Shown here piece by piece: positions 7,382 to 24,708 of a stretch of DNA of 64,000 nucleotides. The stretch lies in the IMG/VR virus record IMGVR_UViG_3300047091_000002, positions 32,001-96,000 of that record. One strand, 5' to 3'. The notes beneath the pieces are model-generated. The model was not told the origin of the DNA. It did not search any database and saw only the letters and a program-made list of their open reading frames with translations. Each line of letters starts with the position of its first letter. Positions within the stretch are counted from its first letter, which is position 1. The position numbers and the translations under genes were made by a program. Source of the DNA: a virus.

Positions 7382-8661
7382 TATAACTCCAATTTGTACT
7401 GAAATGCCGGAATAACCCTATTATACGTAGGATCATTATCTGCCTCTTTAAGACTGGATAATCTCATATCTCCTACTGGATATTGACGAGTGGATTCAAC
7501 AATCCACTGCGCTATCGGAGTTTGCAATTGCCCAATCGATTGGGCAAAAGTATCAGCTCCATTCATAGGAGGATTGATAAATAAATGTACTCCATTAGAT
7601 AGCAAGGCATAAAGTCCAAAATGTACGTGCCCTACATAAACAATTTGAGCCTTTTCCGCATCGTTTCTACAAGCATTGAATTTATCTATTTGCGTAGAGA
7701 TTGCCTCAATAGGAACTACCTTAGCAGGATTCCCAGTATTAAACACTGTATCCCCGTGCAGAATTAATACATTATGATCAAAGACTTTATAAGTAGTATA
7801 AGGAGTTAAGGGTTGATGAAAATAAAGTCTTTCTTCTTTACGAAATGCTTCTCTAACTATTTCCATTATAATAGTTAAAAAAGAATCGTACTTTTGGCTT
7901 CTGGCTCTTTCCCTACCTTTAACAGTGGTAATCATTCTATCGTGATTACCCGGAGATACAAATACATTGATCTGCGGATAATAATCTAATTCATAATCTA
8001 ATAGAGCAATAAGGTATCTAGCAGTACCTAGAACTTGCCAAGTAATAGGATCAATATTATGATCTTCTGCATGAATTAGACCTTGTATTTGATCTCCGTC
8101 AATATTTAGATTGAGTCCACCGCATTCTTTTCTATGATCTAACTTATAATTCGCAAGTTCAACTGCAAATTTTCCTAGTCTTCGAGCAGCAATTTCCCAA
8201 TTAAAAGCATTTCCTTCTACTTCTCTAGGATCTATAGTGCAACCAAAATGATTATCCGATAAATGTCCCGTAACAAATCTTTCCACTTTTTCCGGTTTAG
8301 GAATATAGACTTTTTTTCTAGTAGATACTTGTATGGGCTGCTCTTTAAGAGCATCAATAACGGATTGTTTAAATTTATCTAATCTATGAAGCTCAGTTCC
8401 AAGTTCCTTTTCAAGTCTGCTTACGTACTTATTTCTTTCCTGAGTACCTCTAATAGCTCCAAGATCCTTAAGACATTCACTACCAAACACGTCTTTTACA
8501 AATGAACTAAAGCTACCGAACCTCTTCCTAAATTCCCATTCTCCATATTGCCCTCCACCTTTTTCATATCTGGAAAAAGTCATATCATAAGATTCAAATT
8601 CAATTGCTTTTGCAGATTTACGTACATCCTCGATAAGATTTTCGTATGTAACTTTACTCAT
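7381..8661 (-). CDS. calcineurin-like metallophosphoesterase
   Basis: SDNHFG, DGDQIQG, PGNHDR, LHGD, GHVH motifs. Confidence 0.85.
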   Translation of the reverse strand: MSKVTYENLIEDVRKSAKAIEFESYDMTFSRYEKGGGQYGEWEFRKRFGSFSSFVKDVFGSECLKDLGAIRGTQERNKYVSRLEKELGTELHRLDKFKQSVIDALKEQPIQVSTRKKVYIPKPEKVERFVTGHLSDNHFGCTIDPREVEGNAFNWEIAARRLGKFAVELANYKLDHRKECGGLNLNIDGDQIQGLIHAEDHNIDPITWQVLGTARYLIALLDYELDYYPQINVFVSPGNHDRMITTVKGRERARSQKYDSFLTIIMEIVREAFRKEERLYFHQPLTPYTTYKVFDHNVLILHGDTVFNTGNPAKVVPIEAISTQIDKFNACRNDAEKAQIVYVGHVHFGLYALLSNGVHLFINPPMNGADTFAQSIGQLQTPIAQWIVESTRQYPVGDMRLSSLKEADNDPTYNRVIPAFQYKLEL

Positions 8662-8682
8662 TTTTCTCCTGAGTAGCTGAAA

Positions 8683-9237
8683 TTAATACTTGATTCTATC
8701 GGCAAGTCCTAATTTAACAGCCGATTCGGAATCCATATATGTATCAACATCAAATCTCTTAAGGAATTGTTTTATGGTAACGGGAGGAGTCATTCTACGA
8801 CAAAGAATTTCCCAAGCCCTATTACGAATCCTTTCAGATTCACGGGCATAAGCCGAAACCTCTCGTATTCGAGATTCTGTTATTTTACTATAACCTTCAT
8901 GAAGCATTATAGTAGCATTCGGAGAAAGCTCTCTAATATCGCCTGCTTGTAGAATGACCGTGCCCATAGACATTATATCCCCATAACCAACGATTCTGAC
9001 TCGGTTATTCTTACAATGTCTAATAGCATCATAAATTGCCAAACCATTAGACATGCATCCACCGGGACTATTTAATATTAATGTAATATCGCCAGCGGTA
9101 GAACTTAAAACATGCAAAGCGGATATAATTTTGCTGAATGCTTTTTGTGTTACTTCTCCAGTATAAATAACTGTCCTCGTAGGTATATATAAACCATTAA
9201 TAAACAAATGATCTATATAATCATGCTTTGTTGCCAT
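8683..9237 (-). CDS. clpP: ClpP-like serine peptidase
   Basis: LNSPGG...GLAIYDAI, IMSMGTVILQAG (catalytic Ser), IMLHE (His), DTYM...AVKLGLADRI. Confidence 0.85.
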   Translation of the reverse strand: MATKHDYIDHLFINGLYIPTRTVIYTGEVTQKAFSKIISALHVLSSTAGDITLILNSPGGCMSNGLAIYDAIRHCKNNRVRIVGYGDIMSMGTVILQAGDIRELSPNATIMLHEGYSKITESRIREVSAYARESERIRNRAWEILCRRMTPPVTIKQFLKRFDVDTYMDSESAVKLGLADRIKY

Positions 9238-9242
9238 AAAAT

Positions 9243-9749
9243 CTAACTATTGAATAATAATGATTCCGCCGCCCGTCTTCGCACTAATCCCTTCAACGTT
9301 TTTCCACCAGCTTTTGACCACTTGCCAAATTCTTGACTTGCTCCAGAATAATCACCTTTGTTAATCTTCTTAAGCAACGTAGAATTTCTAAGAGAATTTA
9401 CACCAAGATTAAACGCGAAAGATACAAGTGCGGCAAATTGATTATCTGTTACTGGAACTTTAACTAGATTCTCAACAGGTATTGAATGTATTTTAATATC
9501 CACCCTAAGTAACTCGTTTGCTTCATCTAAAGTAATTCCATTGGGATACAAATCATGCGCTATCATTCCGGCATTAGGAATTTTAGTAGTTAGAAACCCA
9601 TTTCCATACTTGATTGCGTGCCCAAATCCTATCGTATAAATCCCAACCGCGTCAATATATGGATCTAGATTAACCGTTTTAGGATTACCATCTGCAATAC
9701 CTTCAAAACTTTTAATAAGATCGATACCAGCTTGATTTACTTCTCTCAT
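9243..9749 (-). CDS. endolysin, GH24 phage lysozyme
   Basis: LIKSFEG...YIDAVGIYTIGFGH; QFAALVSFAFNLG; LKGLVRRRAAE. Confidence 0.92.
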   Translation of the reverse strand: MREVNQAGIDLIKSFEGIADGNPKTVNLDPYIDAVGIYTIGFGHAIKYGNGFLTTKIPNAGMIAHDLYPNGITLDEANELLRVDIKIHSIPVENLVKVPVTDNQFAALVSFAFNLGVNSLRNSTLLKKINKGDYSGASQEFGKWSKAGGKTLKGLVRRRAAESLLFNS

Positions 9750-10060
9750 TACGGTTCCTTAATAGCTTCTTTATTCATAATATCATTGTGTAATCGGATA
9801 TTTATTCCCTTTTTATCGGGAGTAGGAAAACACTCCAATTCAGTTAATTTATGATTACTTAATATTCTAAAGTAAGTAGCTGCAAAAGCGTTGCGATCAG
9901 ATATTACTTGAGTTTGTATAGTTTGAATTTGAGCTATTAAAAGTTCATTATTCTTGATTGCCTGTTCCGCAATTTCCAAGGATCTTGCAGCAGATTCTAA
10001 TTGAACTTGCTCATCTTCAGTTAGTTCGAGGGAAATTATTTCGTTTAATCCATTATCCAT
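9749..10060 (-). CDS. hypothetical coiled-coil protein
   Basis: TAATG coupling to the endolysin. Confidence 0.6.
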   Translation of the reverse strand: MDNGLNEIISLELTEDEQVQLESAARSLEIAEQAIKNNELLIAQIQTIQTQVISDRNAFAATYFRILSNHKLTELECFPTPDKKGINIRLHNDIMNKEAIKEP

Positions 10061-10088
10061 TAACTATTATACACTCCAATCTCAAAAT

Positions 10089-10190
10089 TTAATTTTCCAG
10101 CAATACAGGAAGACATAATACACAAAATAATATCAGCAAAGCCAATATCTGTATACCTACTTCACGCAGAGTAAATGTTTTATACCTCAT
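10089..10190 (-). CDS. 33-aa single-TM peptide (not in ORF track)
   Basis: MRYKTFTLREVGIQILALLILFCVLCLPVLLEN* with purine-rich upstream. Confidence 0.35.
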   Translation of the reverse strand: MRYKTFTLREVGIQILALLILFCVLCLPVLLEN

Positions 10191-10196
10191 TTTTCT

Positions 10197-10637
10197 CTAT
10201 TTAATCCTTTGAATAAGTCTCTTCAACCTATCAAACCAATAGTATACACTAAATCTATGCACTTTGTCAAGTCTTTTCTTTCCTACTGGGTGATATATTT
10301 TTTGCAAGTCGCGATGCAGTAAGTGTCTACTGATTATAAAACAGATAAGTGTTGCTATAGGCGGTCCCAATGCAGTAACATAATGGATAAGATTTACTGG
10401 AATAGTAATATACATACCTAAGATTGGTATAGTGATATAGGCATGGTTTGCCATAGGAGGTAATATTAAAGCCACCATTAATCTTAGTACCAAGCCCAAC
10501 AAAGATACGCTAAAAGCTGCTATTTCCCATTTCCAAGTAGGTGAAGAAAGTTGCTTCTTAAGAGACCATTCTTGGTAGATAAGAAACCCGAATAATAGAA
10601 AATAACCAATTAACCATATTACTACAACAATATCCAT
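10197..10637 (-). CDS. multi-pass membrane protein (holin-like candidate)
   Basis: 3-4 hydrophobic segments and a basic C-terminal tail. Confidence 0.6.
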   Translation of the reverse strand: MDIVVVIWLIGYFLLFGFLIYQEWSLKKQLSSPTWKWEIAAFSVSLLGLVLRLMVALILPPMANHAYITIPILGMYITIPVNLIHYVTALGPPIATLICFIISRHLLHRDLQKIYHPVGKKRLDKVHRFSVYYWFDRLKRLIQRIK

Positions 10638-11020
10638 TATATCGCCTGTATATCTAATTTATATTTATGAATAACCGCAGTTAGCATAAATGATGCCGCC
10701 AGTCGCTCTCCAGACGCTTGAGATGGATCGGAAATAAGCGAGTTAAGATCTTTTGCAAATAATTTAGCATCGTCTGTACTTAAAGTTCCCGCTAAATAAC
10801 CGTCAATAAGTTTATCTCTGTCAGGGGTTATTGGATGATGGAGTATAGCAGCGGCATGTTGTTCCATCATGGACCAAAACAAACCTACCTTAGTCTCTAC
10901 CTCTTTAAGTCTATCTAAAACATTACGGGAATCCTGCGACTTATTAAAAAAAGCCTGATACAGGATTCCCAAGACGGTTACTACAATCGCTGCTGTGGCG
11001 AGTATATCAGTTATAGACAT
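10637..11020 (-). CDS. single-TM protein with cytoplasmic helical domain
   Basis: ILATAAIVVTVLGILYQAFF then a helical domain. Confidence 0.6.
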   Translation of the reverse strand: MSITDILATAAIVVTVLGILYQAFFNKSQDSRNVLDRLKEVETKVGLFWSMMEQHAAAILHHPITPDRDKLIDGYLAGTLSTDDAKLFAKDLNSLISDPSQASGERLAASFMLTAVIHKYKLDIQAI

Positions 11021-11035
11021 AAACTAAATTAGTTG

Positions 11036-11260
11036 TTATTCGATTTCTACACCATTAAGAATATCTTCATTAATGGAATCGTAACAGTGTAGAAGTAGAT
11101 TAAGACAATCAATACCAGCTTCTTGCTGTTGAGAAGTAAGAACCCCATCAATACGGGTTTGTAGATCAGTTTCACCCATCGAATTATTGATAGATGCTGA
11201 TACTGCACTAGCAGCTAATTTATTGGAGCAGATTAAAAGTTTGCAAGATGCGTTCGCCAC
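11036..11260 (-). CDS. hypothetical protein (likely GTG start at 11260)
   Basis: AAGGA upstream of GTG; the longer ORF-track start overlaps the HNH promoter. Confidence 0.35.
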   Translation of the reverse strand: MANASCKLLICSNKLAASAVSASINNSMGETDLQTRIDGVLTSQQQEAGIDCLNLLLHCYDSINEDILNGVEIE

Positions 11261-11289
11261 TTGACATTTTCCTTTCTTTATGTTAAAAT
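11261..11289 (+). promoter_or_regulatory. sigma70-type promoter for the HNH gene (leaderless)
   Basis: TTGACA-17 nt-TAAAAT with extended -10 TG; ATG 6 nt after -10. Confidence 0.8.
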
Positions 11290-11295
11290 AATTAT

Positions 11296-11946
11296 ATGAA
11301 TAACATAAAACCAAATTATGGCCGTTTGAAAATTATAAAAGAAGCGCCAATTCGTAAGAATCATAGATATATGCTATGTCAATGCGAATGTGGAACAATA
11401 AAAGAAGTTGCGTTAACTTCTCTGAAACAAGGATTCACTCTGTCTTGCGGTTGTTTTGGTAAAGAACAACGTCGAAAAGCACTTACAACTCACGGTCTTA
11501 CGAAAACTCCTGAATACTGGGTATTTCAACACATGCATCAAAGATGCGAAAATCCCAAAGATGCGGAATACCACAATTATGGCAAACGCGGAATATGTGT
11601 ATCCCCTAGGTGGAAAACTGTTGATGTTTTCTATAAAGATATGGGACCACGCCCATCTCCGCAACATTCTTTAGACCGCATTGATAACAATAAAGGATAT
11701 TATCCTGAGAACTGTAGGTGGACAACATCGCAGACCCAGAACAATAATAAACGGGTTAATAAAATTATCTCCTTTCAAGGAGAATCATTAACTGTTACTC
11801 AATGGGCTACTAAACTCGGATGGAATCCAAGTATTATATACTCTCGCTTACGAGATAATTGGAATATTGACGATACATTATCCTATCCAATTATTAGAGG
11901 TGGTTGGGCTGCTCGTCGTGCAAGGGGTTGGAACCCAAACATTTAA
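11296..11946 (+). CDS. HNH homing endonuclease, antisense to the late operon
   Basis: CQCECG...SCGC; YGKRGICVSPRW; HSLDRIDNNKGYYPENCRW. Confidence 0.9.
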   Translation: MNNIKPNYGRLKIIKEAPIRKNHRYMLCQCECGTIKEVALTSLKQGFTLSCGCFGKEQRRKALTTHGLTKTPEYWVFQHMHQRCENPKDAEYHNYGKRGICVSPRWKTVDVFYKDMGPRPSPQHSLDRIDNNKGYYPENCRWTTSQTQNNNKRVNKIISFQGESLTVTQWATKLGWNPSIIYSRLRDNWNIDDTLSYPIIRGGWAARRARGWNPNI

Positions 11947-11956
11947 AATAAAATAA

Positions 11957-12256
11957 TTATTTTCTAGTACGTTTTTCAGCATTTTGTAATCCTTGCATTT
12001 CAGCTACAGTTGTAGCTAGAATTTGATATTGCGCGCTAAGATATTCAAGTTTTTGTTGTAGTTGTTGTATGGATTCTTTTTGGCTCTCTTGTCCACGAGA
12101 TATTCCACCGGACCAGTACCCTCCAGCGAGGGTCTGTGCAAAAATAAATATTAAAATAGTTACGCAGATTGCGTATATTCCAACTAAATCCTTCTTATCG
12201 TTATTCCTGATCTCGCTATGAACCGTTGGATGAGTAGAAGAAAGGTGTTGATCCAC
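11957..12256 (-). CDS. single-TM coiled-coil protein (holin/hemolysin-like)
   Basis: TM LVGIYAICVTILIFIFAQTLAGGYW followed by a coiled coil. Confidence 0.6.
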   Translation of the reverse strand: MDQHLSSTHPTVHSEIRNNDKKDLVGIYAICVTILIFIFAQTLAGGYWSGGISRGQESQKESIQQLQQKLEYLSAQYQILATTVAEMQGLQNAEKRTRK

Positions 12257-12270
12257 TAACGAGTCTCCTC

Positions 12271-12699
12271 TTACTTTTTAGTTCGCAGAATAGTTGCGAC
12301 AGCGCATCTTTCTCCATTAAACATCCGAGGATGTAAGCCTATGGCTACCGGAAATTCAGAACCATCTTTATGTTGTGCTACCAAGTTCATATCGGTAGTT
12401 CCCATAGGGCGGGACGATGGGAGATGAGAATAGCTGCCAAAATGTTTATCATGATTAGTGTGAAATCTTTCTGGTATAAGAAAATTTAAAGATTTTCCAA
12501 AGAGTTCACCCTCTATATAGCCGAACATTGTATCTGCTAAAGGTGTTGAGTAAACTATCACCCCCTCATCTAACAATACAATGATAGCTGGGACGCATTG
12601 AGAAATAGCATCACTAGCTGCGCTTTTATCAAGCGTGGCTCTTAATGCACTTGCTCTATTTTTAAGATCTTCTAATGAGCTTGTCTCTGAATTAACCAT
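12271..12699 (-). CDS. stand-alone PAS domain protein (likely start MVNSE at 12699)
   Basis: IIVLLDEGVIVYS..ADTMFGY..ELFGKSLNFLIPERF..HD..RPMG..HKDGSEFPVAIGL is a classic PAS S-box/PAC pattern; no output domain. Confidence 0.88.
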   Translation of the reverse strand: MVNSETSSLEDLKNRASALRATLDKSAASDAISQCVPAIIVLLDEGVIVYSTPLADTMFGYIEGELFGKSLNFLIPERFHTNHDKHFGSYSHLPSSRPMGTTDMNLVAQHKDGSEFPVAIGLHPRMFNGERCAVATILRTKK

Positions 12700-12929
12700 A
12701 TAATAATTCCCGTTATTAACGCAAGTCCTTCCAGTCCTATAGCCCCCATACAACCGTAAACTATAGTCTGTAGTCGCCCGACTTTCTCTTTCTCAACTGC
12801 TGAGTCAACTTCGAGTTTAGATACTCGTAATTCTTGCAATGTATCTAACTTTTTAGAAACTACCTGTAGTTCCTTAACGATATTTTCCATAATGACCGCG
12901 AGTTCGGTCATCTGATCACGTTCTGGCAT
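12672..12929 (-). CDS. coiled-coil protein with C-terminal TM (XhlA/holin-like)
   Basis: Heptad region, then IVYGCMGAIGLEGLALITGIIIWLI. Confidence 0.6.
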   Translation of the reverse strand: MPERDQMTELAVIMENIVKELQVVSKKLDTLQELRVSKLEVDSAVEKEKVGRLQTIVYGCMGAIGLEGLALITGIIIWLIQRQAH

Positions 12930-13214
12930 TTATGATCTTCTTCCACTAAAATAGTAAGCTAAATAGAATAGTATTATAGCAGTTCCCGCAGTTAAAAAGG
13001 CTCTGAGAATCCAAAAATTATCTCCTTCTGGAAATATAGAAATATAAAATCCTAATATTCCAGATGTAATAAAGGTGAAAAGAGGAAGAAGTCTAAGTCT
13101 GCTGGCGATTGGATTAGTTTTATATTTTTGCAGACTAAGAAGTAAAGCTATCGACCCTCCAGCTACACAAAACGACACAATTCCATTAATTACTCCTACC
13201 AGATCATTTTTCAT
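12930..13214 (-). CDS. three-TM membrane protein (holin-like)
   Basis: Three hydrophobic segments and a basic tail. Confidence 0.6.
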   Translation of the reverse strand: MKNDLVGVINGIVSFCVAGGSIALLLSLQKYKTNPIASRLRLLPLFTFITSGILGFYISIFPEGDNFWILRAFLTAGTAIILFYLAYYFSGRRS

Positions 13215-13528
13215 TTTCTTCTTACCTCTTGTGCCAAATTCTCGAAAACACTCTTCATATTATCGGTCCCTTTTTCAACCGCGCTCGCTGTCTGTTGAAG
13301 CGCGGTTTCAAGTTTCATTAAATCCTCACGTCGAGCATTCATCGAAGATAATAACTGCTCATCTTTTTTATCAATTCGTTGCATTAGCCATCGAACAATC
13401 AATCCAAATGCTGTAATGAGAAATAAAAGGACTATTAAGATTAATGTAGCACTTAATCCTACTTCCTTTACTGCTTGTGTAGCATCTGAGATAGATTGAA
13501 AAAAATTAAATATATAATAAATATTCAT
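13211..13528 (-). CDS. single-TM coiled-coil protein (BhlA-like holin candidate)
   Basis: VGLSATLILIVLLFLITAFGLIVRWLM followed by a coiled coil. Confidence 0.6.
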   Translation of the reverse strand: MNIYYIFNFFQSISDATQAVKEVGLSATLILIVLLFLITAFGLIVRWLMQRIDKKDEQLLSSMNARREDLMKLETALQQTASAVEKGTDNMKSVFENLAQEVRRK

Positions 13529-16500
13529 TATATCAAATATCCGAATAAATCTACTTTTAGTGTTGCTGCACTACCAAATGCACTATTTACTTTTAATTGA
13601 ACCTTAAATCCAGAATTAATTAATTCTCCAGTTGCTATATTAGCAGAAGTATCCGTGTATATAATTTGTTTATATACTGCGCTGCTTGTAAAATATGCTG
13701 CTATATCAGCATTCGTTAAATTACTCGATGTTTCTTCATTTACGGTTCTGAATGATGCGGAAAGAGTCGTGAGATCTGTACTGGGACTTCGTAGAATTAT
13801 TCTAGTTAATACAAGTGTTTTTCCAATCGGCACTGTATAGGCATCCTGCAAGGATGTGGTATTAACATCCAAAATAAATCCGTTTACTAAAATTTGCTCT
13901 GTTGGCGTATCAGACCAGGATAAAATTACATCCCCACTAGATGGTGCAGCAGCCTTGAGAAATTGTCCTGCGGACGGATCATTTGTAGGTAATGTAAAAA
14001 TTAATGCGTTGGTAGCATTTCCGGCTCGGATTGATGTTAAATTAGTTGTTGACGAATTAGCTAACTTAAGTAAACCTGTCTGGGTTGATACTACTCCAAC
14101 CTGGATTGAGGTATTGATTGTCGGAGTCTGAGAAAAACTAGGCGCTCCTGCGTTAGCTGTTAATATACTATTAGCAGCACCTTGAGAAGTAACTTGAATT
14201 GCCGAGGTAGAATTACCATATAAAACACCATTAGATGTAAATGTGGTAGTTCCAGTACCACCTTGTCCTACTACGATACCAGCAGTAGCAGACAACTCAG
14301 TTGTAGTAATTGCCGATAATCTCGCCAGTGGAACAGTGCCCGATCCTAGATCAGATGCAGAAAGAATCGCCCATAAAGCATCTGTTCCATCACTTCTTAA
14401 ATACCTTGCGCTAGAACCTAATGCAAGTCTAACATCATTAGTGCCATCATTAACTATTAAATCACCACGAGTAGTAGTAGGACTTAATGCATCGAATGCA
14501 GCAGTTTGAGTAGATTGACCAGTTCCACCACGAGAAATTGCTAATTGCCCTGACCAACCTAACGTATGCGTAGAGCTAACACTTGTTATAGTAACATTTG
14601 TATCATCTACAAATGTTTGAGTAGATGCAGTTAAACCGTTGAAACTTGTAACTATTGAACTTGCGCCTACAATTATTTCCGAAGAATCGGAAAATAACAT
14701 AACAGCTTCTGTAGCACCTCCCCCATCATCTCTAATAAAAAATCTAGCTTTATTAGCTGCTGGAGCAGATGGAGTAGACATTTCAGTAAACTCTAATGCT
14801 GCACCTGCTACGGCTGGATTCGTAAGAGCAAGAATGCCGGCAGCACTTCGGATAAGTCGCAAGTCAGAACTTCCACCCGAAGCAGATGTAGAACTCCATT
14901 GGAAGTAGGCTGCCGCTTTCTGGGCTATTCCACTTGCATCAATTCTTACATCATCTCCACCAGCAGTTCCTATATTAAAAAAATTAGTTATTACTGACGA
15001 AACGCCCACAAAAGAATATGCATAAGCAGAACAATAATCGCTATCATCAGCAAGTCTAAACCATATAGTAGCAGATTCTCTTTTTATTGCAGGAAACGCA
15101 CTTGATGTACCACCAAATAGTAGCATATCAAAATTGTTACCCGCGTTATTTAACAGGGTTAATTTACTATCAGCAGAGGATTTAATCTGGGATCTGGATG
15201 AAAATATAGATGCTCCGGTAGAAGCCAATGTAAGACTAGAAAATGTAGGAGAGCTAGAAGTTCCAATATCTTGCGAGGTGCCGATAACTACCGACCCTCC
15301 TAAAGATACTGGACTTCCAGAAATCGAAATTTGATTTGTTACTCCCGTTATTGTAATACTAGAGTTTGCAAGTTTAGAGTTGGCTATTGCAGCACTGGAA
15401 TTAATATCCGCATTAAGTATAGAATTTCCTAAACTTAATTTTGAGTAAGCTATCGCAGCGGAAGCACTTACATCAACATTTACTACTGATTTATTCAATA
15501 TAGATGTATAATCTATAGTACCAGTAACAATTACTCCATCGGCATCCACTATAAACTTATCTACTGGGCTGCCAGCCATATCAGTAATATGTATAAGATT
15601 TCCTGTAAATCCTCCTATAGGCACTCTACCACTGAAAAGTGGTCCCGTAGTAAGACTATTACCTATTAAATCGAAGACTGGTTCATCTGTTGCGCTGCCA
15701 TGAATAATCAAAACATCTGCTAATCCGCCCTTAACTATTTTAAAGTATTCTCCATAGTATATCAAATCCATTCCAATAGGGCTATATGACCATAACAAGT
15801 CCTTGAAGGTTGATCCTAAACTATTATAGATAATTAGTTGAGAACCTCCTCCAATACTAATAGAGAAGTCTGTATTAGCAACAGCACTTAATAGATTGGC
15901 TGTGATGCCAGTCTTATCGTTAAGTTTGATTAAATCCAGATATGTAGAGTCATCGAAACTATATTGAAATTTCCACGTTACGTGCTGCTCTCCACCCTCT
16001 ACAACCGGAACAAGATACGTTCTAACATATGAAGTTGTATCGGCGGCTGGACTACCTTCTACATTCCAAGCATGCCCTGTAAATTTAATTGCTGGAGAAT
16101 ATTGCTGATCTACTAACGCCGTAGAAGGAGTATTATTTTCAAGAGATAGTGCATACGTGGGAGTTTCAGCAATTGCATTTTTTATAATAGTTTGAACTAG
16201 ATTAAATACATTAGCAGTGTTCTCAAAAGCTACATTTGAACTAAGTCTTGCATCTGCGAGAGTTCCAGTAGTTAAATCAGTGGCACTACGAGTTGCTAAA
16301 TCGGCTAAACTAGATCCAGATTTAGATATTTTAGTCCAGGCTATTGCGGCTGCGTTATCTATTTGACTATTAGTAATTCCAGCTAAACGATTTACACTTA
16401 AAGTTCCAGATTGAATATCCGCTGCATCTATAGCAGTCCAAGCAGATGTACCTGTTCCAGTTCCCTTTAAGAATATTCCAGAGGTAGGAGTAGAACTTCC

Positions 16501-16854
16501 TGTGCCTAATTTAGTTTCTGCTGCGATAATCGCAAGAGAATGAATCATATGATGAACAGATACTATAAATAACTCTACCGAAACACCGGATGCGTGACTT
16601 ACTACTGTCGTACTATCTCTACCCCTAACAACATCTAAAAAGTGCGTAGAATCTTTTGATCCATAATAACAGATTTCAGTATTATTTATAGTAATTGCAC
16701 CAGTAGCAGGAAATGAAGACGTGCTGGATACTGTAATAATGGTATCAGTATCGCTATGAGAACCATTAAGCGTAGTAGTAGCATTATTACGAGTCTCTTG
16801 CAGCGATGAATTAGTATCAAGAGAGGTCGGGAAATTAGGAGTATCTGTTGGCAT
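13528..16854 (-). CDS. tail fibre / receptor-binding protein
   Basis: 1108 aa, very rich in G/S/T/A; fibre motifs (AAIAxSKL repeats, GGTG, LAISRGGTG); directly after the tail tip genes. Confidence 0.8.
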   Translation of the reverse strand: MPTDTPNFPTSLDTNSSLQETRNNATTTLNGSHSDTDTIITVSSTSSFPATGAITINNTEICYYGSKDSTHFLDVVRGRDSTTVVSHASGVSVELFIVSVHHMIHSLAIIAAETKLGTGSSTPTSGIFLKGTGTGTSAWTAIDAADIQSGTLSVNRLAGITNSQIDNAAAIAWTKISKSGSSLADLATRSATDLTTGTLADARLSSNVAFENTANVFNLVQTIIKNAIAETPTYALSLENNTPSTALVDQQYSPAIKFTGHAWNVEGSPAADTTSYVRTYLVPVVEGGEQHVTWKFQYSFDDSTYLDLIKLNDKTGITANLLSAVANTDFSISIGGGSQLIIYNSLGSTFKDLLWSYSPIGMDLIYYGEYFKIVKGGLADVLIIHGSATDEPVFDLIGNSLTTGPLFSGRVPIGGFTGNLIHITDMAGSPVDKFIVDADGVIVTGTIDYTSILNKSVVNVDVSASAAIAYSKLSLGNSILNADINSSAAIANSKLANSSITITGVTNQISISGSPVSLGGSVVIGTSQDIGTSSSPTFSSLTLASTGASIFSSRSQIKSSADSKLTLLNNAGNNFDMLLFGGTSSAFPAIKRESATIWFRLADDSDYCSAYAYSFVGVSSVITNFFNIGTAGGDDVRIDASGIAQKAAAYFQWSSTSASGGSSDLRLIRSAAGILALTNPAVAGAALEFTEMSTPSAPAANKARFFIRDDGGGATEAVMLFSDSSEIIVGASSIVTSFNGLTASTQTFVDDTNVTITSVSSTHTLGWSGQLAISRGGTGQSTQTAAFDALSPTTTRGDLIVNDGTNDVRLALGSSARYLRSDGTDALWAILSASDLGSGTVPLARLSAITTTELSATAGIVVGQGGTGTTTFTSNGVLYGNSTSAIQVTSQGAANSILTANAGAPSFSQTPTINTSIQVGVVSTQTGLLKLANSSTTNLTSIRAGNATNALIFTLPTNDPSAGQFLKAAAPSSGDVILSWSDTPTEQILVNGFILDVNTTSLQDAYTVPIGKTLVLTRIILRSPSTDLTTLSASFRTVNEETSSNLTNADIAAYFTSSAVYKQIIYTDTSANIATGELINSGFKVQLKVNSAFGSAATLKVDLFGYLI

Positions 16855-17327
16855 TAATGTTCTCCAGTGCGTCTAAAAGGTTTAGCTAAAAGCGCTTTAG
16901 CTCTGGAAATTTCCGAAGGCGTAAATTTATTAATCAATTTTTTCCTATTAGTTGATTGTGGTATAAGTGCTAAAACTAGAAATAAGAATTCATCTCCAGA
17001 GTCTCCTACGTTTAATCCATTTAAAAAAGAGCAATCTAAAATCATTGCTACTCCAGTCCAATTACATCTCTTTGCTGAACACGGCGCAGCGCCAGAAGTA
17101 AGAGAAAATCTAACATCGGCAGATGAAAAATCCGCATCGTCAAAAATCGTATCGAAAATTTTACAATCAATCAAGGATCGAATTTTACAATTAGATAAAT
17201 TACAAGAATACAATTCACATGAATAAAAATCAGGCAACGGATCGGAGAATCTGCAATTTACGAAAATCGTATCTCTATATACTCTCGCAATATGTTTAGA
17301 AATTGTCTCGCCCTCTATTCGTTCCAT
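16854..17327 (-). CDS. degenerate pentapeptide-repeat protein (likely start MERIE at 17327)
   Basis: FVNCRF, LYSCNLSNCKI, IFDDADFSSADVR; TAATG coupling at both ends. Confidence 0.55.
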   Translation of the reverse strand: MERIEGETISKHIARVYRDTIFVNCRFSDPLPDFYSCELYSCNLSNCKIRSLIDCKIFDTIFDDADFSSADVRFSLTSGAAPCSAKRCNWTGVAMILDCSFLNGLNVGDSGDEFLFLVLALIPQSTNRKKLINKFTPSEISRAKALLAKPFRRTGEH

Positions 17328-17811: not shown

Positions 17812-20800
17812 TTAATAAACTGGATAATTATTAGGATAATTATTAGTTGCTTCCAAATCTCCATTAATAGGATTACCGGGATTATACGGAGGTGGAAATT
17901 GGCTGCTTGGTGGTAGAGGAACGTAATTACTAAAACTACTCCAACCATCACTTCCGGCACCTCTATACATATTTCTATATCTAATTCGTAAAGATCTAGT
18001 TAATGTTCCAGCAGGAGAAATCTTATAAAGAACTCCCGGTCTAAAGGGAATTATTTCACTTGTTTGTAGCGATCCGGGGCTAGTAAACTTCTGAAATTGA
18101 ATATCGGTTACAGAAAATGCATTTACTCCACTTGGAACCTGGACTTCTATAACATTTACAGGAGAACCGGATTCATCTACCCCCCGTGTAACTCGCATCG
18201 GACCTGTACCAGCGGGAACGGTTAAGGCGGTATCGGAAAAAACATTATCAAACCCGTTAAGAATCGTTATATCAATAACACTATTTCCTATAACGTCTTC
18301 TAATGGTCTCGAATAAGTTGAAAGTGGTCCAACCGTAGTCCATACACTAAAAGTTCCACGGTTCTGCATATTTTGAACTCTAGCATGAAACCATAGATTT
18401 TCTAGCACATCTGTCTTTCTTTTAAACGTAATTGGACCAGATCCGGTTTTCTCTTTACGAACATTCACTCCGGGAGTGGCAGAATTCGCCATTTGCACTT
18501 GCCATTCAAGTTGAGAATTAACATTCGATAGCGGAATAACTGGAGTAACAATAAATACTCCAAAATATTCTTGTACGTCTATTGATTGCGGTGCCGAAGG
18601 TGCTGCAATATCACCGGGAATATTGTCTGCCTCATTCGGTAATATTGTAGATGTAACGGCGGCAGTACCGTTGGTCTCCACCCCAGAAACTATGTTAACC
18701 GCCAATACTGTAGCGAACACCCCGTTAGTAATAAATGTAGATGCTATTTCGGATCGCTTTAAATGTGTAGTATGATGCGTATCGGTAACTAAAATAGTTG
18801 CAGCAGCTTGGGAAGCTGCAATTTGTCCGGTGTGAGGATCCATGAAAGTCCCCCCTAACCCAGATGTATAAAATATCTTATATCCTATTAAAGATTTAAC
18901 ATTGGAACTAGATCTAATCCATGTAGTTTTCCAACCCCTCTTATTGGTAAAGGTTAAATTTAAATTAGTTACAGCATTCGCGGCAGCAGTATCCTCTGTT
19001 TGAGCGTCATCTCTTATTGGAATTACTAACGGGGATGTAGTAGATGTTCCATCGGTTTCTACTCCGTTTACTACATTTACCGGAATTACTTTAATTCTTA
19101 CACCTGCTTGAAATTGCAATGCTATCTCAGAAAATTTCAAATGCGTTGTATGGTGGGTATCAGTAACTAAAATAGTTGCACCAATTTCAGTATTAGGAGA
19201 TGCTAGTTGTCCTGTATTAGCATTCATAAAATTCGTACCTAAAATATCTACATAGGAAATTTTATATCCTTTTATTGAACTTATATTAGATGCTGGTCTA
19301 ATCCACGTACCCTTCCACCCCTTACGATTTGTCCAAGTAAGTGCTATATTACCTACTACAGATGCAGCCGCCGTATCTTCTGAAATAGCATCTCCGGGTA
19401 AAGTTTGAGTAGTCGAATACTCAGTAAATGGTCCAGCACTTAATGTTCCGGTTGTTTGATTAAAATTATAGGATCGCACTGCTATTTTTAATCCATTAAT
19501 CTGAAATATACTGGCTAATTCCAATCTTAAAATATTTAAATTAATTTCATTTGGTTCAGTAAAAAATTCAGAATTAGCATCTGTAGTTATTGGTGTTCCC
19601 GGATTATTAATATCAACCCAATTATTTGAATCATTTCCGGCACGAATTTTAAAGCCGTACTTGGCTATTGCTTTAGGAGATTCGTCTGGACTAGACTGTA
19701 TGTGAGTCGGAGTATCCCACCGAGCTTTTGTTAACTTTTTATTTACTTTAAACGTAAGTCCAGCTTGCACTGCGGTTGCTTGGGAAGTTGAATTCACCCA
19801 ATTTGCCGCATCTCTATCGAATACGAAATCCGAATTTCCAGTAAGTGCTGCAATAGATGTAGTTGTTCCTGACGAGCCGAATCCTATATTAGAAGAAGGA
19901 TTCGTAGTTTCTATCGGACCTGTCGAGCCATTAGTAAAATTATATATGCGAGCTATTATCCCTATTCCCCCAGTAATAGCTCCGGCAGGAAGCGTTGCCT
20001 TGGTAACATGTCCGTGAAATCTAGATGGGCCAAAAAATCCCGAATTTCCGCCCCTTCCGAATGTTGCCGTAGTTGATGCAGTCGAAACGATACCAATATC
20101 CGCACCAGTATCAGGATTAAAGAGATTTCTTGCTACAGTAGTTCCGTTAGCAGTTGCGGGATAGAAGAAGCCGAATTCGTGGTCATGCACAGTATTATTG
20201 TTATTTGCAGATTGATTTAATTTAACAATAATTCCTTTGGAATTTTTCCAAGTCGCCGTTCCTGTAGCAACATCTGGGGCACCAACATCTACCGCGCCAC
20301 CACTAGAATCCGAACCCGGCGTTATTAACGAACTTGTTGATGTATTAGTCGATTCAGTCAATACTCCACCAACAATATTAGTTCCCCAAATCCGAAGCCT
20401 TACTCCAGAAGCTAAAAATATAGGATCAACTTGAGAACGTTTCAATTTAAGATGAAGGTGGCTACCTTCTACCTTGAATTTTGCTTGATTCTCCGTAGTT
20501 CCAGATGCAAAGGCTACTCCGGTATCAGGATCCATAAATCTAGCAGGTACGGAATCATTGAAAATTGATGCGTAATAAAATTGATGCGATGTTGCGTTAG
20601 TTGCAGGTCTATCCCACGTACCTTTAAATCCGAATCCATCTTTCCATCTTAATAAAATATTTTGCGGTGCGGATTCCATCGCAAGATCTCCGGTTGTAAC
20701 AGGAAGCCCCGAAGTAGTATTTAAAACAGTGGAAAAGTTAGTAGACCAACGCCCGTTTTTCTTTTGAGCTAGTACGGATACGAAATATGTTTGACCGGAT

Positions 20801-23800
20801 GTAATTGTTATTCCGCCGAATACCTCATCATTATAAAATCTTCTATGCGATACCGATTGAACATCTATAGCCTGAACATCTACATTTTTCGCAGTATTTC
20901 CAACATTATAAACCGTAACAATACCATTTCCTCGAATGGCATTAAGAGTTTTCGATACCCCCGGTGTATCGGTTCCATCAGTTGCTATAGTTATATCTTG
21001 TCCCGGTCCTTTTGTTCCGAATGGAACAGTAGATATAAGAACTAAGTATCTACGAACGGAGACTTCTTCTATAGCATCCCAATCGAATAAATATCCATCA
21101 TTTTTCTGTCTTATACTTCCACCAATTACAGTTTGTAATGTGTTTGTGAGTCCTGCTATACCGGGATGAAATTGAAAAGGTGCGGCATCGAATATAGCAT
21201 CTGTTTTGAAACTTTCTATTGGAGGCGGAGTACCAATATATCCTATTAAATATACTTTTTCAACAGTTTGTTGTTGCCCTACTTCTCGAATTTTAGGTCC
21301 ATAAAATACTATATCAGATGGAAAATAAGTACGATGTTTCTTTTTAGCCCACCTGAAATCTCGATTCATTATGATGTCTACATAACCATTTGCTAAATCC
21401 TCATCACTTACGTCTTGCAGATGGGAGTGAACTATTCGATTATCATCATAATTTCCTATAGAGTAATCTTCTACAGGATCAGATTCTTTCATCCGCATCT
21501 TTATAGCAGAATTACTTTGCCCAAGATGGATTCTATATTTACCTGAAAACTCTACTCCAGCAGTTTGATCATCATCATCCTCTATTGCTCCTCCTAAAAC
21601 TTGCGGAGCGGATTGGAAGAAATCAACAAGTGATATAGATCCTACAGTAACAGTTGGATTTGTTGCATCAAAGGGGGTTACAATAGTTCCCTCATCACCA
21701 AATCTATCTACCCAAGCAGCGGATGCCCATATAATATCATCTTTATCGGTATCTTTAAAATCCAAATGATACCGAGATATTCCAGTATCGGAAACTATTT
21801 TATGTGTTACAATAACTCCATCATCACTATCCTGATTGAATTCACTTCTTAATGTAACATCAGAAGTTCCAACATCCTTTCTTAATACGAAAAATCTAAT
21901 AAACTCTGCTCTACCAGTTATTTCCTTACCTGTAGGTGGTGGTCCCACACGAACTACTAATCTGCCACCGGGTTTAATTTTTACTACTTCAAATGGTGTA
22001 GGTGCTGGAAGTGTAGGAAGAGTACAAGCAAGTTCAAGAAAATCGCCACTATATTTATCTCCCATTCCTTGAACTCTAACTTTAATTGATTTAGACAATG
22101 GTTCATAAGGAAGAGGATACGATTCGTTGAATATCTCATCCACTTGCCTCCATATAGGAGGTGTTATAGGATCATTATCTTCATCAAGCAATCGTTGTAT
22201 TTGATAGATTTGGGCACCAGAAGGTCTACCCCAAGTATAAGTGATTAAATTAGTTTTTGCAGAATAGTGACAATGTACTGTAGATGTATCAATAGATAGG
22301 GGCGGATAAATCACCTCAACAAATAATTTATGCACCTTACTACCATCAGAAACAGTACCTCCAATAAATACTGGGGCTTCATGCAAATCTCCAGTAGCAT
22401 AATCAGCAGGATCAAATGATGAAGATGCCGGTTTTCCTGCTAAAGTAATCGAACCTCCAGAAATTCCCAAGGTAACATTATCAATATCATTCCAAGTACC
22501 GGAAGATATTCTAGGTCCGGTAGCCATTAAAGGTCTAAATCCAGGTCCGAAATCTTCTTGTTTTGCTAAGAGTTCTCGGTTAATTAACTCTACAGAATCC
22601 GGTTCTCCCAAAGTAATATGATAGTTGAGTACGCATACAATACTATTTGTCGAAGGATCATAATCACCGCCTAAAAATTCAACACTTACCTCACTTATGG
22701 GGACTGTAGCCGGTTCAATTAAATATTCGCTAGGTACATCTACAGCGAAAGTCTTAGGAGGAATAGGAAAATGACTTGTAAATATCGATTCTCTAAGTAT
22801 AGTTCCTTTAGGAAGAGGGAAAGCAAAATCATTTATAATTGCTTGACCTATAGAAGTACATTCCGCCTCGGTAATGGCAGTTTCGGATTGTATTAAATCT
22901 CCTTGACGAACTCCGAATACTGCCTGACTCGCCGCATCCTCTACAACAACATCGGCTTGTTTAGCCTCGTCATAATTAAGAAGAAGTCTAATAACTCCTC
23001 TAAGAGGTAATCTATCCCCAACGAAAGTGGCTATAGCACCATTCCCCGATTTGGATATTGAAATATCGGCAGTAGTACCCTGCCCAGTATCTACTCTAAG
23101 TCTTCTTCCCGGTTCTCCAGTATAAGGATTGGCTAAAAGTACAACATCAATTGCAGGACCGTAACTTGCGCTCCAACCCCTTGCGCTTATTCCCGATCCC
23201 CCGGAAATAATTAATTTAGGTTTCCCAAATCTATTACTTGGAGCCGCACCAGAATAAACTATCTTTTCTGTAACTATTACAGTTGTTCCATCGCCAGAAG
23301 CAATTTGATCCGTTACCAAGAGCCCGTCCGGTATAGGATCTATTTCTATCGTATTTCCACTTCGAGATTTTATAGTTACAAATCCTCGAATATCTTCTGG
23401 ATCTCCATTAGAAAATATTCTTATAGAATCGGGTAAATCATTTACAGTGTGTCCAGAAGGAAAAGAAAGAGTTAGTATATTACTCGATATTCCAGTAATA
23501 GTAGCTAAGACAGTAGATCCAGCATCCGCATTTAATAGACTTTCTGCTATTGTTACTTGCAATCCACCGGGGGTAAATTGAGCTAACCAATTGTACGAAT
23601 ATTGAATTGTGCCAGAAGGTGCGGGACCTCCTTGCATAAATGGTGTTGCCTGAGAAAAAGTTGCTCCTCCTACTACTGCACCCATCGAGCCTGGGTTTAC
23701 TGAAACTCCTAATACAGTGATATTATTTCTACCAATAAATCCGCATACTACGCCTGATCCAGTATTATGAATATCCGATACTTCAACAGTAGTGGGATAG

Positions 23801-24708
23801 TGAATAGGAGTTATTTTCGGTAAGGTAGTTTCATCAGTAGCACCTATATCCCCACCATCCATTGAGACATTAAGTAACTCGGCAGCATCAAGTCCGTAAG
23901 GCGTAGCTCCTAATTTAAATGATGAATCTAAAGCATCTATCTCTCTAAATTCCATTACAGTAGAGTTAGGACCACCGGCAACATTTCCCTTAATTCTTTG
24001 GTAATTGATTATTTGCTCAGAAGGAACAATAGGTTCTTTAAACGGTGAAAAATCGTGATCATCTTTATCTACTGAAAGTCCCGATATGCCAAAACTCGAT
24101 TCATAATTAGCAGTAATTCCCAATCCACCGGGACTAGATGGATCTAATATAGCGATATAATTACCGGCAGCTACATTTTGTTGTCTTAATATATCCGATA
24201 ATTTGCCAAAATCCTCTGTATTAAGATATGGTACGCTATTACCATCAACTATATTGGTTACAACTAACGTAGAATCAAGAAGTGGAATAAGAGTTCTTAA
24301 AATCTCCCCAGATGTAGATTCAATAAATTCCATCTTCGGAAGAGGAATTCTATCGCAAGCCGTCAATCTATCAATTAAATCATACGTATAAACAACGATA
24401 GGTGCGGAAGCCGCTCCAGCATAAAAAGTAGTCTGGGTAGTTACGGGAATCATTTGAAACACCTCTCCCGTAGGAACTACTATACTGAATGCACTTTGAA
24501 CTCCCGGAGCGGCTTCTGGATTATCGGTAGCATCAATCATTACAGAAGCTACAGCACCTAATCCTTTTCTTACGGTTAATTGAAATTTCTCCCACACGAC
24601 GGAATGAGAAAAATCCGAGTTTCCACCAATTAACCGAAGATCGGTCTTTGTACTAGCCGTTGCTCCATACAGAGCAACTCCATATTTTTTCGTGTTATAT
24701 TTCGCCAT
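17812..24708 (-). CDS. large tail tip / central fibre protein with Fn3-like repeats
   Basis: 2298 aa, downstream of the TMP; beta-rich; W-x-R-P...Y-x-I Fn3-like motifs repeated. Confidence 0.8.
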   Translation of the reverse strand: MAKYNTKKYGVALYGATASTKTDLRLIGGNSDFSHSVVWEKFQLTVRKGLGAVASVMIDATDNPEAAPGVQSAFSIVVPTGEVFQMIPVTTQTTFYAGAASAPIVVYTYDLIDRLTACDRIPLPKMEFIESTSGEILRTLIPLLDSTLVVTNIVDGNSVPYLNTEDFGKLSDILRQQNVAAGNYIAILDPSSPGGLGITANYESSFGISGLSVDKDDHDFSPFKEPIVPSEQIINYQRIKGNVAGGPNSTVMEFREIDALDSSFKLGATPYGLDAAELLNVSMDGGDIGATDETTLPKITPIHYPTTVEVSDIHNTGSGVVCGFIGRNNITVLGVSVNPGSMGAVVGGATFSQATPFMQGGPAPSGTIQYSYNWLAQFTPGGLQVTIAESLLNADAGSTVLATITGISSNILTLSFPSGHTVNDLPDSIRIFSNGDPEDIRGFVTIKSRSGNTIEIDPIPDGLLVTDQIASGDGTTVIVTEKIVYSGAAPSNRFGKPKLIISGGSGISARGWSASYGPAIDVVLLANPYTGEPGRRLRVDTGQGTTADISISKSGNGAIATFVGDRLPLRGVIRLLLNYDEAKQADVVVEDAASQAVFGVRQGDLIQSETAITEAECTSIGQAIINDFAFPLPKGTILRESIFTSHFPIPPKTFAVDVPSEYLIEPATVPISEVSVEFLGGDYDPSTNSIVCVLNYHITLGEPDSVELINRELLAKQEDFGPGFRPLMATGPRISSGTWNDIDNVTLGISGGSITLAGKPASSSFDPADYATGDLHEAPVFIGGTVSDGSKVHKLFVEVIYPPLSIDTSTVHCHYSAKTNLITYTWGRPSGAQIYQIQRLLDEDNDPITPPIWRQVDEIFNESYPLPYEPLSKSIKVRVQGMGDKYSGDFLELACTLPTLPAPTPFEVVKIKPGGRLVVRVGPPPTGKEITGRAEFIRFFVLRKDVGTSDVTLRSEFNQDSDDGVIVTHKIVSDTGISRYHLDFKDTDKDDIIWASAAWVDRFGDEGTIVTPFDATNPTVTVGSISLVDFFQSAPQVLGGAIEDDDDQTAGVEFSGKYRIHLGQSNSAIKMRMKESDPVEDYSIGNYDDNRIVHSHLQDVSDEDLANGYVDIIMNRDFRWAKKKHRTYFPSDIVFYGPKIREVGQQQTVEKVYLIGYIGTPPPIESFKTDAIFDAAPFQFHPGIAGLTNTLQTVIGGSIRQKNDGYLFDWDAIEEVSVRRYLVLISTVPFGTKGPGQDITIATDGTDTPGVSKTLNAIRGNGIVTVYNVGNTAKNVDVQAIDVQSVSHRRFYNDEVFGGITITSGQTYFVSVLAQKKNGRWSTNFSTVLNTTSGLPVTTGDLAMESAPQNILLRWKDGFGFKGTWDRPATNATSHQFYYASIFNDSVPARFMDPDTGVAFASGTTENQAKFKVEGSHLHLKLKRSQVDPIFLASGVRLRIWGTNIVGGVLTESTNTSTSSLITPGSDSSGGAVDVGAPDVATGTATWKNSKGIIVKLNQSANNNNTVHDHEFGFFYPATANGTTVARNLFNPDTGADIGIVSTASTTATFGRGGNSGFFGPSRFHGHVTKATLPAGAITGGIGIIARIYNFTNGSTGPIETTNPSSNIGFGSSGTTTSIAALTGNSDFVFDRDAANWVNSTSQATAVQAGLTFKVNKKLTKARWDTPTHIQSSPDESPKAIAKYGFKIRAGNDSNNWVDINNPGTPITTDANSEFFTEPNEINLNILRLELASIFQINGLKIAVRSYNFNQTTGTLSAGPFTEYSTTQTLPGDAISEDTAAASVVGNIALTWTNRKGWKGTWIRPASNISSIKGYKISYVDILGTNFMNANTGQLASPNTEIGATILVTDTHHTTHLKFSEIALQFQAGVRIKVIPVNVVNGVETDGTSTTSPLVIPIRDDAQTEDTAAANAVTNLNLTFTNKRGWKTTWIRSSSNVKSLIGYKIFYTSGLGGTFMDPHTGQIAASQAAATILVTDTHHTTHLKRSEIASTFITNGVFATVLAVNIVSGVETNGTAAVTSTILPNEADNIPGDIAAPSAPQSIDVQEYFGVFIVTPVIPLSNVNSQLEWQVQMANSATPGVNVRKEKTGSGPITFKRKTDVLENLWFHARVQNMQNRGTFSVWTTVGPLSTYSRPLEDVIGNSVIDITILNGFDNVFSDTALTVPAGTGPMRVTRGVDESGSPVNVIEVQVPSGVNAFSVTDIQFQKFTSPGSLQTSEIIPFRPGVLYKISPAGTLTRSLRIRYRNMYRGAGSDGWSSFSNYVPLPPSSQFPPPYNPGNPINGDLEATNNYPNNYPVY
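18620..20700 (-). repeat. about five tandem ~125-140 aa Fn3-like repeats in the tail tip protein
   Basis: Recurring G(W/F)KGTW.R, FMDP.TG and TILVTDTHHTTHLK (identical in two copies). Confidence 0.75.

Follow-up and report, generated by a model that had tools for sequence, protein, structure and literature searches.

A stand-alone viral relative of heme-binding PAS domains is encoded with a holin-like membrane partner in uncultured phages

The PAS gene lies in the late operon of an orphan phage, between the tail-fibre gene and the endolysin gene. The source record is a complete 119,487-bp virus genome with direct terminal repeats, and the window analyzed here is the 64,000-nucleotide stretch from base 32001 to base 96000 of that record. 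A minus-strand late operon carries the terminase, portal and head genes followed by genes for very large tail proteins, the last of which is an 1108-aa tail fibre (Table 1). No relative of the capsid protein was found in IMG/VR either, and the phage is classed as an orphan. From the tail fibre onwards, the gene order is membrane proteins, the pair formed by the PAS gene and its membrane partner, further membrane proteins and a soluble lysozyme. A promoter and terminator scan of positions 8500 to 17000 returned 33 promoters compared to 32.8 in shuffled sequences and no clear operon boundary.

Table 1. Late-operon genes and features around the PAS gene, in window coordinates.
Feature	Position	Strand	Remarks
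Large terminase	44150-46186	-	late operon
Portal	40889-42481	-	late operon
Major head protein	37891-38946	-	late operon
Tail fibre, 1108 aa	13528-16854	-	
105-aa protein	13211-13528	-	N-terminal TM helix and coiled coil; first gene after tail-fibre gene
94-aa protein	12930-13214	-	3 predicted TM helices; directly upstream of 85-aa partner
Partner gene, 85 aa	12672-12929	-	coiled coil and C-terminal TM helix
Stand-alone PAS gene, 142 aa	12271-12699	-	ATG at 12699
His83 codon	12451-12453	-	F-alpha histidine
99-aa protein	11957-12256	-	N-terminal TM helix and coiled coil; starts 14 nt past PAS stop
HNH endonuclease	11296-11946	+	phrog_374, E 1.8e-59
Promoter-like site of HNH gene	11261-11289		
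127-aa membrane protein	10637-11020	-	one N-terminal TM helix
146-aa membrane protein	10197-10637	-	about 4 TM helices
Endolysin, 168 aa	9243-9749	-	phage lysozyme family; PF00959 E 1.8e-37; phrog_7 E 4e-48

Small membrane proteins flank the pair on both sides. The predicted helices of the 94-aa protein give it a class-I-holin-like architecture without a family assignment; a Bax1-I match below the Pfam cut-off and a 'phage holin' lead (0.84) are both weak. The 105-aa protein has weak phrog matches only, and the 99-aa protein following the PAS gene weakly matches the Rz-like phrog_214 (E 0.0015). A spanin reading of these neighbours with an N-terminal TM helix and coiled coil is not supported for the window: their matches to Rz-like phrogs are weak, and the minus strand of positions 9200 to 13700 contains no ORF with a lipobox as found in o-spanin-type lipoproteins. 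The HNH gene, which has its own promoter-like site, is probably a homing insertion splitting the block of membrane-protein and endolysin genes. Beyond it, the 127-aa and 146-aa membrane proteins have no family matches in Pfam or PHROG, and a 103-aa protein is encoded between them and the lysozyme. Hydropathy analysis of the 168-aa lysozyme reveals no N-terminal TM, SAR or signal segment; the enzyme is soluble and therefore needs a holin. The original prediction had placed the PAS gene inside a holin/endolysin region. This fits the small membrane proteins found between tail fibre and endolysin, but the endolysin itself is located 2.5 kb downstream of the PAS gene on the same strand, with five small ORFs and the reverse-strand HNH gene in between.

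The 142-aa PAS protein consists of a helical N-cap and a single complete PAS domain. Pfam PAS (PF00989) matches residues 37-136 at 25.9 bits with a cut-off of 22.6, and no second domain or output domain is detected by Pfam before the ORF ends at position 12271. The HisKA and HATPase_c domains of a histidine-kinase output are absent from this PAS-only protein, as is a C-terminal HTH, for which neither the Pfam search nor the structural model offers a candidate. AlphaFold2 prediction from the single sequence was unusable (pLDDT 41.5), and a model based on an alignment of 35 homologous sequences was taken instead (pLDDT 93.8, pTM 0.80). In this model the N-cap spans about residues 3-35 and is followed by the PAS core, with strands at residues 38-42, 47-51, 106-109, 115-127 and 130-139 and helices at residues 53-58, 71-74 and 77-92. 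The five strands form the antiparallel sheet of a PAS fold, flanked by helices C-alpha to F-alpha. A Foldseek search with the model yielded 434 PDB matches at E<=1e-3, with a PAS domain in every match listed. The protein is thus what it had been described as from the DNA letters, a complete PAS domain with a short N-terminal helix, here about 35 residues long, and no output.

Stand-alone homologues of the PAS protein form a phage family distinct from bacterial PAS domains. Searching short proteins with the profile identified ~30 stand-alone homologues (E 1e-23 or better), which are 124-169 aa long and share 32-51% identity with the PAS protein of the window (P0001). In a quick maximum-likelihood tree of 32 phage PAS proteins, picked by length and profile score, and the 140 best-scoring bacterial PAS domains (122 columns), the stand-alone phage proteins occupy one side of a branch separating them from the bacterial domains (SH-aLRT 99). 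One change suffices to separate phage and bacterial PAS sequences on this tree, and 0 of 500 shuffles gave a count as low. Among bacterial sequences, the nearest relatives come from multi-PAS sensor kinases, whose PAS domains show 35-46% identity. We read the DNA around 11 homologues (L002, L003, L005, L007, L008 and L010 to L015), and one further locus was followed from its gene list. All 11 other loci are located on uncultured phage-like contigs of unlike types, most of them clearly phage, with GC contents from 37 to 62%. Phage genes on these contigs encode a Crass_capsid protein, an SU10_portal protein together with Phage_capsid_4, a DNA polymerase A together with a PIF1 helicase, a PhageMin_Tail tape measure protein and a 2612-aa virion protein; the locus known from its gene list has a GpA terminase together with RusA. 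Among the 50,697 deposited phage records of INPHARED, no relatives were found by DNA or tblastn searches (P0001, P0245, P0225 and the partner). A pattern scan of IMG/VR found no family member beyond this record, GTDB species genomes yielded no member, and a scan of JGI metagenomes returned a single match at 25% identity. So far, the stand-alone PAS family belongs to uncultured phages.

The PAS gene and the gene for a tail-anchored partner represent a conserved two-gene phage module. A partner gene is found directly upstream of the PAS gene in 12 of 12 loci, window included, and its product, 60-143 aa long, has a coiled coil in its N-terminal part and one TM helix near its C-terminus in every case. 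Most partners also have a short basic tail and, halfway through the membrane, a Glu or Gln residue. For the window partner, hydropathy analysis locates the TM helix at about residues 58-82 with a mid-membrane Glu. In 10 of the 12 loci, the end of the partner gene and the beginning of the PAS gene overlap by 1-28 nt (28 nt in the window), which suggests translational coupling. Partners are mutually homologous, as seen for the window and L010 proteins (36% identity over 84 aa, E 6e-19 in a small database). The same two loci share a further gene: the 99-aa protein of the window is homologous to the product of a 143-aa gene of L010 (6017-6448, blastp E 9e-13 in a small database), which is located two genes upstream of the pair. 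The L002 protein P0017 (255 aa) has a TM segment and a tail joined to the C-terminus of its PAS domain, an arrangement found on one contig and possibly an assembly error. That the homologues might be randomly placed host fragments, a concern raised together with the original prediction, is contradicted by their synteny in phages and by their single branch apart from bacterial PAS domains.

The partner resembles XhlA and gp24.1 in its architecture as a tail-anchored protein, with family membership below threshold. No significant Pfam or PHROG family was found for it. In the ESM Atlas, its nearest named clusters are both 'XhlA' (0.94 and 0.93, with 189 and 177 shared features), and Pfam XhlA (PF10779) is the family matched by most partners (4/11, best E 0.0057, below the cut-off). 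An hhalign comparison of the partner alignment with the single SPP1 gp24.1 sequence gave no match. The gene overlapping the PAS gene had been called holin-like; the overlap is real and extends over 28 nt, but the product is better described as an XhlA/gp24.1-like tail-anchored protein with a sub-threshold family score. Complex prediction for the PAS protein and residues 1-62 of the partner gave no answer (score 0.00, without controls) and carries weight neither way.

In 5 of 10 informative loci, a known or candidate cell-wall hydrolase is encoded no more than 2.5 kb from the PAS gene. These are the phage lysozyme of the window (2.5 kb, beyond the HNH insertion), a divergently encoded Hydrolase_2 protein in L012 (1.1 kb), a LysM protein in L007 (1.9 kb) and DUF5675 proteins in L011 (0.3 kb) and L013 (0.8 kb). 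DUF5675 has been proposed to be a C82-like peptidase lysin (bioRxiv 10.64898/2026.04.11.717860). Using a rough null of a ~10% chance for a random gene to lie that near a single endolysin, the binomial probability of this count is near 0.002, with the loci partly dependent and two of the 'lysins' being candidates only. Hydrolase proximity is thus suggestive of a link between the pair and the lysis region. Among additional neighbours, a 135-aa protein of L011 has both a lipobox and a C-terminal TM helix, and the next gene in L005 encodes a DUF6549 protein that begins and ends with a TM helix; both are u-spanin-like by architecture only. L005 also contains a weak LydA-holin match two genes upstream, and in the window, L005, L011, L012 and L013 small multi-TM proteins are encoded immediately before the pair. 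In the other five informative loci, no hydrolase is located nearby.

The pair may instead be unrelated to lysis and have a different late role at the membrane, for example in excluding superinfecting phages, in remodelling the membrane or in disturbing host signalling, the last including a decoy that heterodimerises with host PAS kinases. Such roles would fit the five informative loci without a nearby hydrolase as well as the location of the pair, given that the stretch just after the tail-fibre genes is also a usual place for exclusion and moron genes. The nearest bacterial PAS domains belong to sensor kinases and, at 35-46% identity, make heterodimers conceivable. However, the pairing with a phage-encoded membrane protein is strict and coupled in 12 of 12 loci, and strict coupling to a dedicated phage partner points to an internal partner rather than to a host target. 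In unrelated phages, known or candidate lysins are repeatedly found next to the pair, as are the two neighbours whose likeness to u-spanins is one of architecture only, arguing for a role in lysis. The clear separation of the phage clade from host domains is also not what a mimic that follows a single host kinase would show. The earlier idea of a decoy that poisons host PAS kinases is unsupported, and we consider a role outside lysis, taken as a whole, to be unlikely while still deserving attention.

Sequence and predicted structure both assign the phage PAS protein to the FixL/DosP/FG214 cluster of heme-binding PAS domains. In a single-sequence search of the PDB, RmFixL (1d06) and 10jx were each matched at E 1e-10 and BjFixL at E 3e-8 to 2.5e-7, while E. 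coli DosP was matched weakly and no other kind of PAS domain was found below E 0.9. A profile built from 35 homologues retrieved 14 distinct PDB sequences at E<=1e-3, all of them heme-binding PAS domains, led by FG214 (10jx, E 1.9e-23) and including RmFixL (E 2.4e-18), DosP (E 2.8e-15) and BjFixL (E about 6e-14). Ranks 1-33 of the Foldseek search are likewise all FixL, FG214 or DosP/EcDOS, with RmFixL at the top and FG214 at rank 2-3; non-heme PAS domains (LOV and others) appear only below rank 33. FixL and DosP have been placed in PAS 'cluster 3' in a genome-wide survey covering bacteria, archaea and eukaryotes, which reports that heme binding within the cluster depends primarily on the F-alpha His, the one determinant that never varies, and that only 60% of the cluster keeps this residue (Xing et al., 2023, PMC10468136).

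The F-alpha histidine and several further pocket positions are highly conserved in the phage family. HMMER aligns His83 with the proximal heme ligands of BjFixL (His200), FG214 (His156) and EcDosP (His77), and its motif also falls on the RmFixL equivalent. In the same alignment BjFixL Arg220 and Arg206 correspond to Asp103 and Ser89, so that both parts of the original comparison with FixL, a retained proximal His and an absent distal Arg, are confirmed. We counted residues in 1000 related PAS domains (31 phage, 969 bacterial) aligned to the family profile. His83 is a histidine in 31/31 phage homologues and 943/969 bacterial domains. Met99, equivalent to FG214 Met172 and a possible alternative distal ligand, is found in 30/31 phage and 442/969 bacterial sequences, His86 (FG214 His159) in 29/31 and 209/969, and Arg97 (BjFixL His214) in 28/31 and 532/969. 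Ile120 and Leu122 align with BjFixL Leu236 and Ile238, which, like His214, we take to have heme-pocket roles in the FixL structures. In the column of BjFixL Arg220, phage sequences most often have K, D, E or S, and Arg is present in 572/969 bacterial relatives; one column earlier, 12/31 phage members have an Arg. FG214 His175, the distal ligand, corresponds to Thr102 and is not conserved in the phage family (FG214 numbering from bioRxiv 10.64898/2026.03.15.711900).

Lacking a kinase and with BjFixL Arg220, Arg206 and His214 all replaced, the phage protein belongs to the cluster without being a FixL, and it probably does not act as an O2 switch in the manner of FixL. In FixL, Arg220 contacts bound O2 and Arg206 is located at the propionate; with both of them and FG214 His175 replaced, any distal-side sensing chemistry of the phage protein probably differs from that of FixL and FG214. 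A retained histidine alone is no proof of heme. Judging from the residues and relatives described above, we lean towards the phage PAS protein being a heme binder.

The PAS fold could also function without a cofactor as a protein-binding adaptor, either a constitutive antiholin or a chaperone for the tail-anchored protein, with the conserved histidine in a structural role or in contact with the partner. Many PAS domains have no known ligand, the distal-side residues of FixL and FG214 are not kept, and two features specifically conserved in the phage family, His86 and a Leu-His-Pro-Arg patch (residues 122-125), are not FixL heme-pocket residues, all of which would suit an adaptor. If no cofactor were bound, however, there would be no ready explanation for the invariant F-alpha His, the conserved Met99 and Arg97 and the hydrophobic positions of the pocket, and all nearest solved relatives bind heme. 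We regard a cofactor-less adaptor as quite unlikely. A functionless piece of a host sensor kinase that was captured recently, conceivable given the abundance of the PAS family in bacterial kinases (36,634 library matches), is scarcely credible and was set aside in view of the ~30 full-length stand-alone homologues, their conserved synteny and translational coupling, their separate monophyletic branch, the 37-62% range in GC content and the below 50% identity of the closest bacterial domains.

Our preferred explanation, put forward tentatively, is that a cytoplasmic stand-alone heme-PAS sensor regulates a holin-type partner and thereby sets the time of lysis. The PAS protein would bind heme b via His83; Met99 could serve as the sixth ligand, and the position of Arg97 would allow contact with a propionate. 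It would be made together with the tail-anchored partner and dock on the cytoplasmic coiled coil of the latter, probably through its own 35-residue helical N-cap. A change in heme ligand or redox state (O2, NO, CO or Fe2+/Fe3+) would then alter the conformation or oligomeric state of the PAS protein, as in FG214 and FixL, and this alteration would hold back or release the membrane partner. The state of the PAS protein could in this way set the moment at which an XhlA-like/multi-TM holin opens the membrane to the endolysin, making the PAS protein a sensor-equipped, cofactor-bearing, RIII-like antiholin. The observations pointing towards such an antiholin are the coupling of the two genes and the L002 fusion. 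Heme binding, partner binding and lysis control are the parts of this mechanism that we infer. The more far-reaching statement that a heme gas or redox sensor directly gates a two-component holin (XhlA-like plus multi-TM) in many uncultured phage lineages seems to us somewhat doubtful.

For a lytic phage, no life-history trait matters more than the timing of lysis, whose known means of control are holin dosage, dual-start antiholins and the response of T4 RI/RIII to superinfection. If the proposed mechanism is correct, this would be the first phage to read an intracellular gas or redox signal to time the bursting of its host, with a lysis clock set by the respiratory or oxygen state of the host and not by holin concentration alone. 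A cofactor-bearing antiholin would represent a class of lysis control not described so far, with a bearing on phage ecology across oxic-anoxic gradients, and the 142-aa sensor together with its 85-aa membrane partner would offer synthetic biology a minimal portable heme switch. Independently of any lysis output, the FixL/DosP heme-PAS cluster is now extended to viruses, and a conserved stand-alone PAS form with a dedicated membrane partner is defined. A literature search for a PAS domain associated with a holin or lysis cassette, or for a phage-encoded heme sensor, found nothing relevant; as far as sequence assignment goes, the phage protein is a viral representative of the heme-PAS cluster that stands alone and has its own membrane partner of holin type (XhlA-like).

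Comparison with solved heme-PAS proteins highlights both shared pocket features and different outputs. The best profile match of the phage PAS protein is FG214 of Fimbriimonas ginsengisoli (PDB 10jx/10jy), and both proteins possess an F-alpha motif with two His three residues apart and an Arg-x-Met-Gly loop. In FG214, the heme state switches the monomer-dimer state, leading to the release of a partner domain (bioRxiv 10.64898/2026.03.15.711900). Unlike the phage protein, which lacks an output domain and has Thr102 in place of the distal ligand, FG214 belongs to the one-component transcription factors and contains an HTH. FixL (S. meliloti 1D06/1EW0; B. japonicum 1DRM, 1DP6, 1XJ4 and 8JS5) has the proximal His in common with the phage protein, an FG loop differing by one residue in length and distal hydrophobic residues at the positions of Ile120 and Leu122. 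In contrast, FixL contains a histidine kinase, which the phage protein lacks, and keeps the arginines and the histidine replaced in the latter.

Known XhlA systems come from Bacillota phages, and to our knowledge none has a PAS partner. XhlA of PBSX, gp24.1 of SPP1 and the partner described here are all about 80-90 aa long with an N-terminal coiled coil, one C-terminal TM helix and a short basic tail, and SPP1 gp24.1, at 83 aa, has the same layout of a coiled coil followed by a C-terminal TM helix. XhlA and gp24.1, each with one C-terminal TM helix, cooperate with the two-TM holins XhlB and gp26, respectively, and the SPP1 and PBSX holin components are harmless alone while both together kill at once (PMC6316719). 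As with XhlA and gp24.1, the partner gene is located beside a gene for a multi-TM holin-like protein in a late operon that also encodes the endolysin.

Two further phage systems provide parallels in logic. The T4 antiholins RIII (cytoplasmic) and RI (periplasmic) act on the holin T and delay hole formation upon a signal. RIII has no sequence or fold relation to the phage PAS protein and neither a sensor fold nor a cofactor; the likeness lies in a small soluble protein that is encoded with lysis genes and binds the soluble domain of a holin, as is proposed here. VqmA_Phage of vibriophage VP882 is a quorum-sensing receptor composed of a PAS domain and an HTH that binds DPO and acts on the lysis-lysogeny switch. 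It is a DNA-binding transcription factor with DPO rather than heme as its ligand, whereas the protein described here lacks an HTH and is encoded in a late/lysis block. Both are phage-encoded PAS proteins, and VqmA_Phage links a small-molecule signal to a lysis decision.

An HNH endonuclease gene lies in the middle of the membrane-protein/endolysin block of the window, in an orientation opposing this minus-strand block, and is immediately preceded by a near-consensus promoter-like site (11/12, TG). The HNH gene looks like a homing-endonuclease insertion dividing a lysis cassette. Directly following the endolysin, a soluble phage lysozyme, is the gene for a ClpP-type 'head maturation protease'; it lies about 29 kb from the genes for the portal and major head proteins, an unusual position for a prohead protease. 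The tail module of this 119-kb phage contains two very large ORFs; PHROG returned no match for the tested ORFs adjoining them.

Features of the window and of uncultured phage-like contigs (L numbers) carrying a homologous PAS pair
Feature	Location	Strand	Family match
ClpP-type protease	window 8683-9237	-	phrog_94, E 6e-28
HNH endonuclease gene and upstream promoter-like site	window 11261-11946	+	phrog_374, E 1.8e-59
Tail-module ORF, 2298 aa	window 17812-24708	-	
Tail-module ORF, 1903 aa	window 25349-31060	-	
P0017, 255 aa	L002 2584-3351		
DUF6549 protein, 215 aa	L005 7450-8097		
Virion-type protein, 2612 aa	L008 1-4129		
DUF5675 gene	L011 7716-8171		PF18925, E 1e-26
DUF5675 gene	L013 4521-5000		
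CAP/SCP-domain protein	L014 2079-2657		PF00188

In the metagenomic relative P0017, an in-frame fusion joins the PAS domain to a TM helix and a tail of ~90 amino acids. Unless produced by an assembly error in its single 3.4-kb contig, this protein would represent a naturally occurring version of the sensor that is tethered to the membrane.

In other relatives, the following genes lie near the PAS pair, that is, the PAS gene and its upstream tail-anchored coiled-coil/TM partner. Immediately 3' of the PAS gene on a crAss-like contig, the DUF6549 protein carries TM helices at its two ends, a u-spanin-like layout, and DUF6549 may be a spanin-type family. The CAP/SCP-domain protein, encoded by the second gene past the pair after a 63-aa two-TM protein, possesses a lipoprotein-type signal with the lipobox LVGC and is an unexpected element in a phage late region. 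Upstream of the pair on a 70-kb phage contig, the virion-type protein has precomputed Pfam matches to Peptidase_M15_3, GGDEF (weak) and ART-PolyVal (faint).

In two phages belonging to separate PAS clades, the PAS pair is followed, 0.3-0.8 kb further downstream, by a DUF5675 gene. DUF5675 has been proposed as a C82-like peptidase lysin (2026 preprint, bioRxiv 10.64898/2026.04.11.717860), and these two loci would represent independent context support for that assignment.
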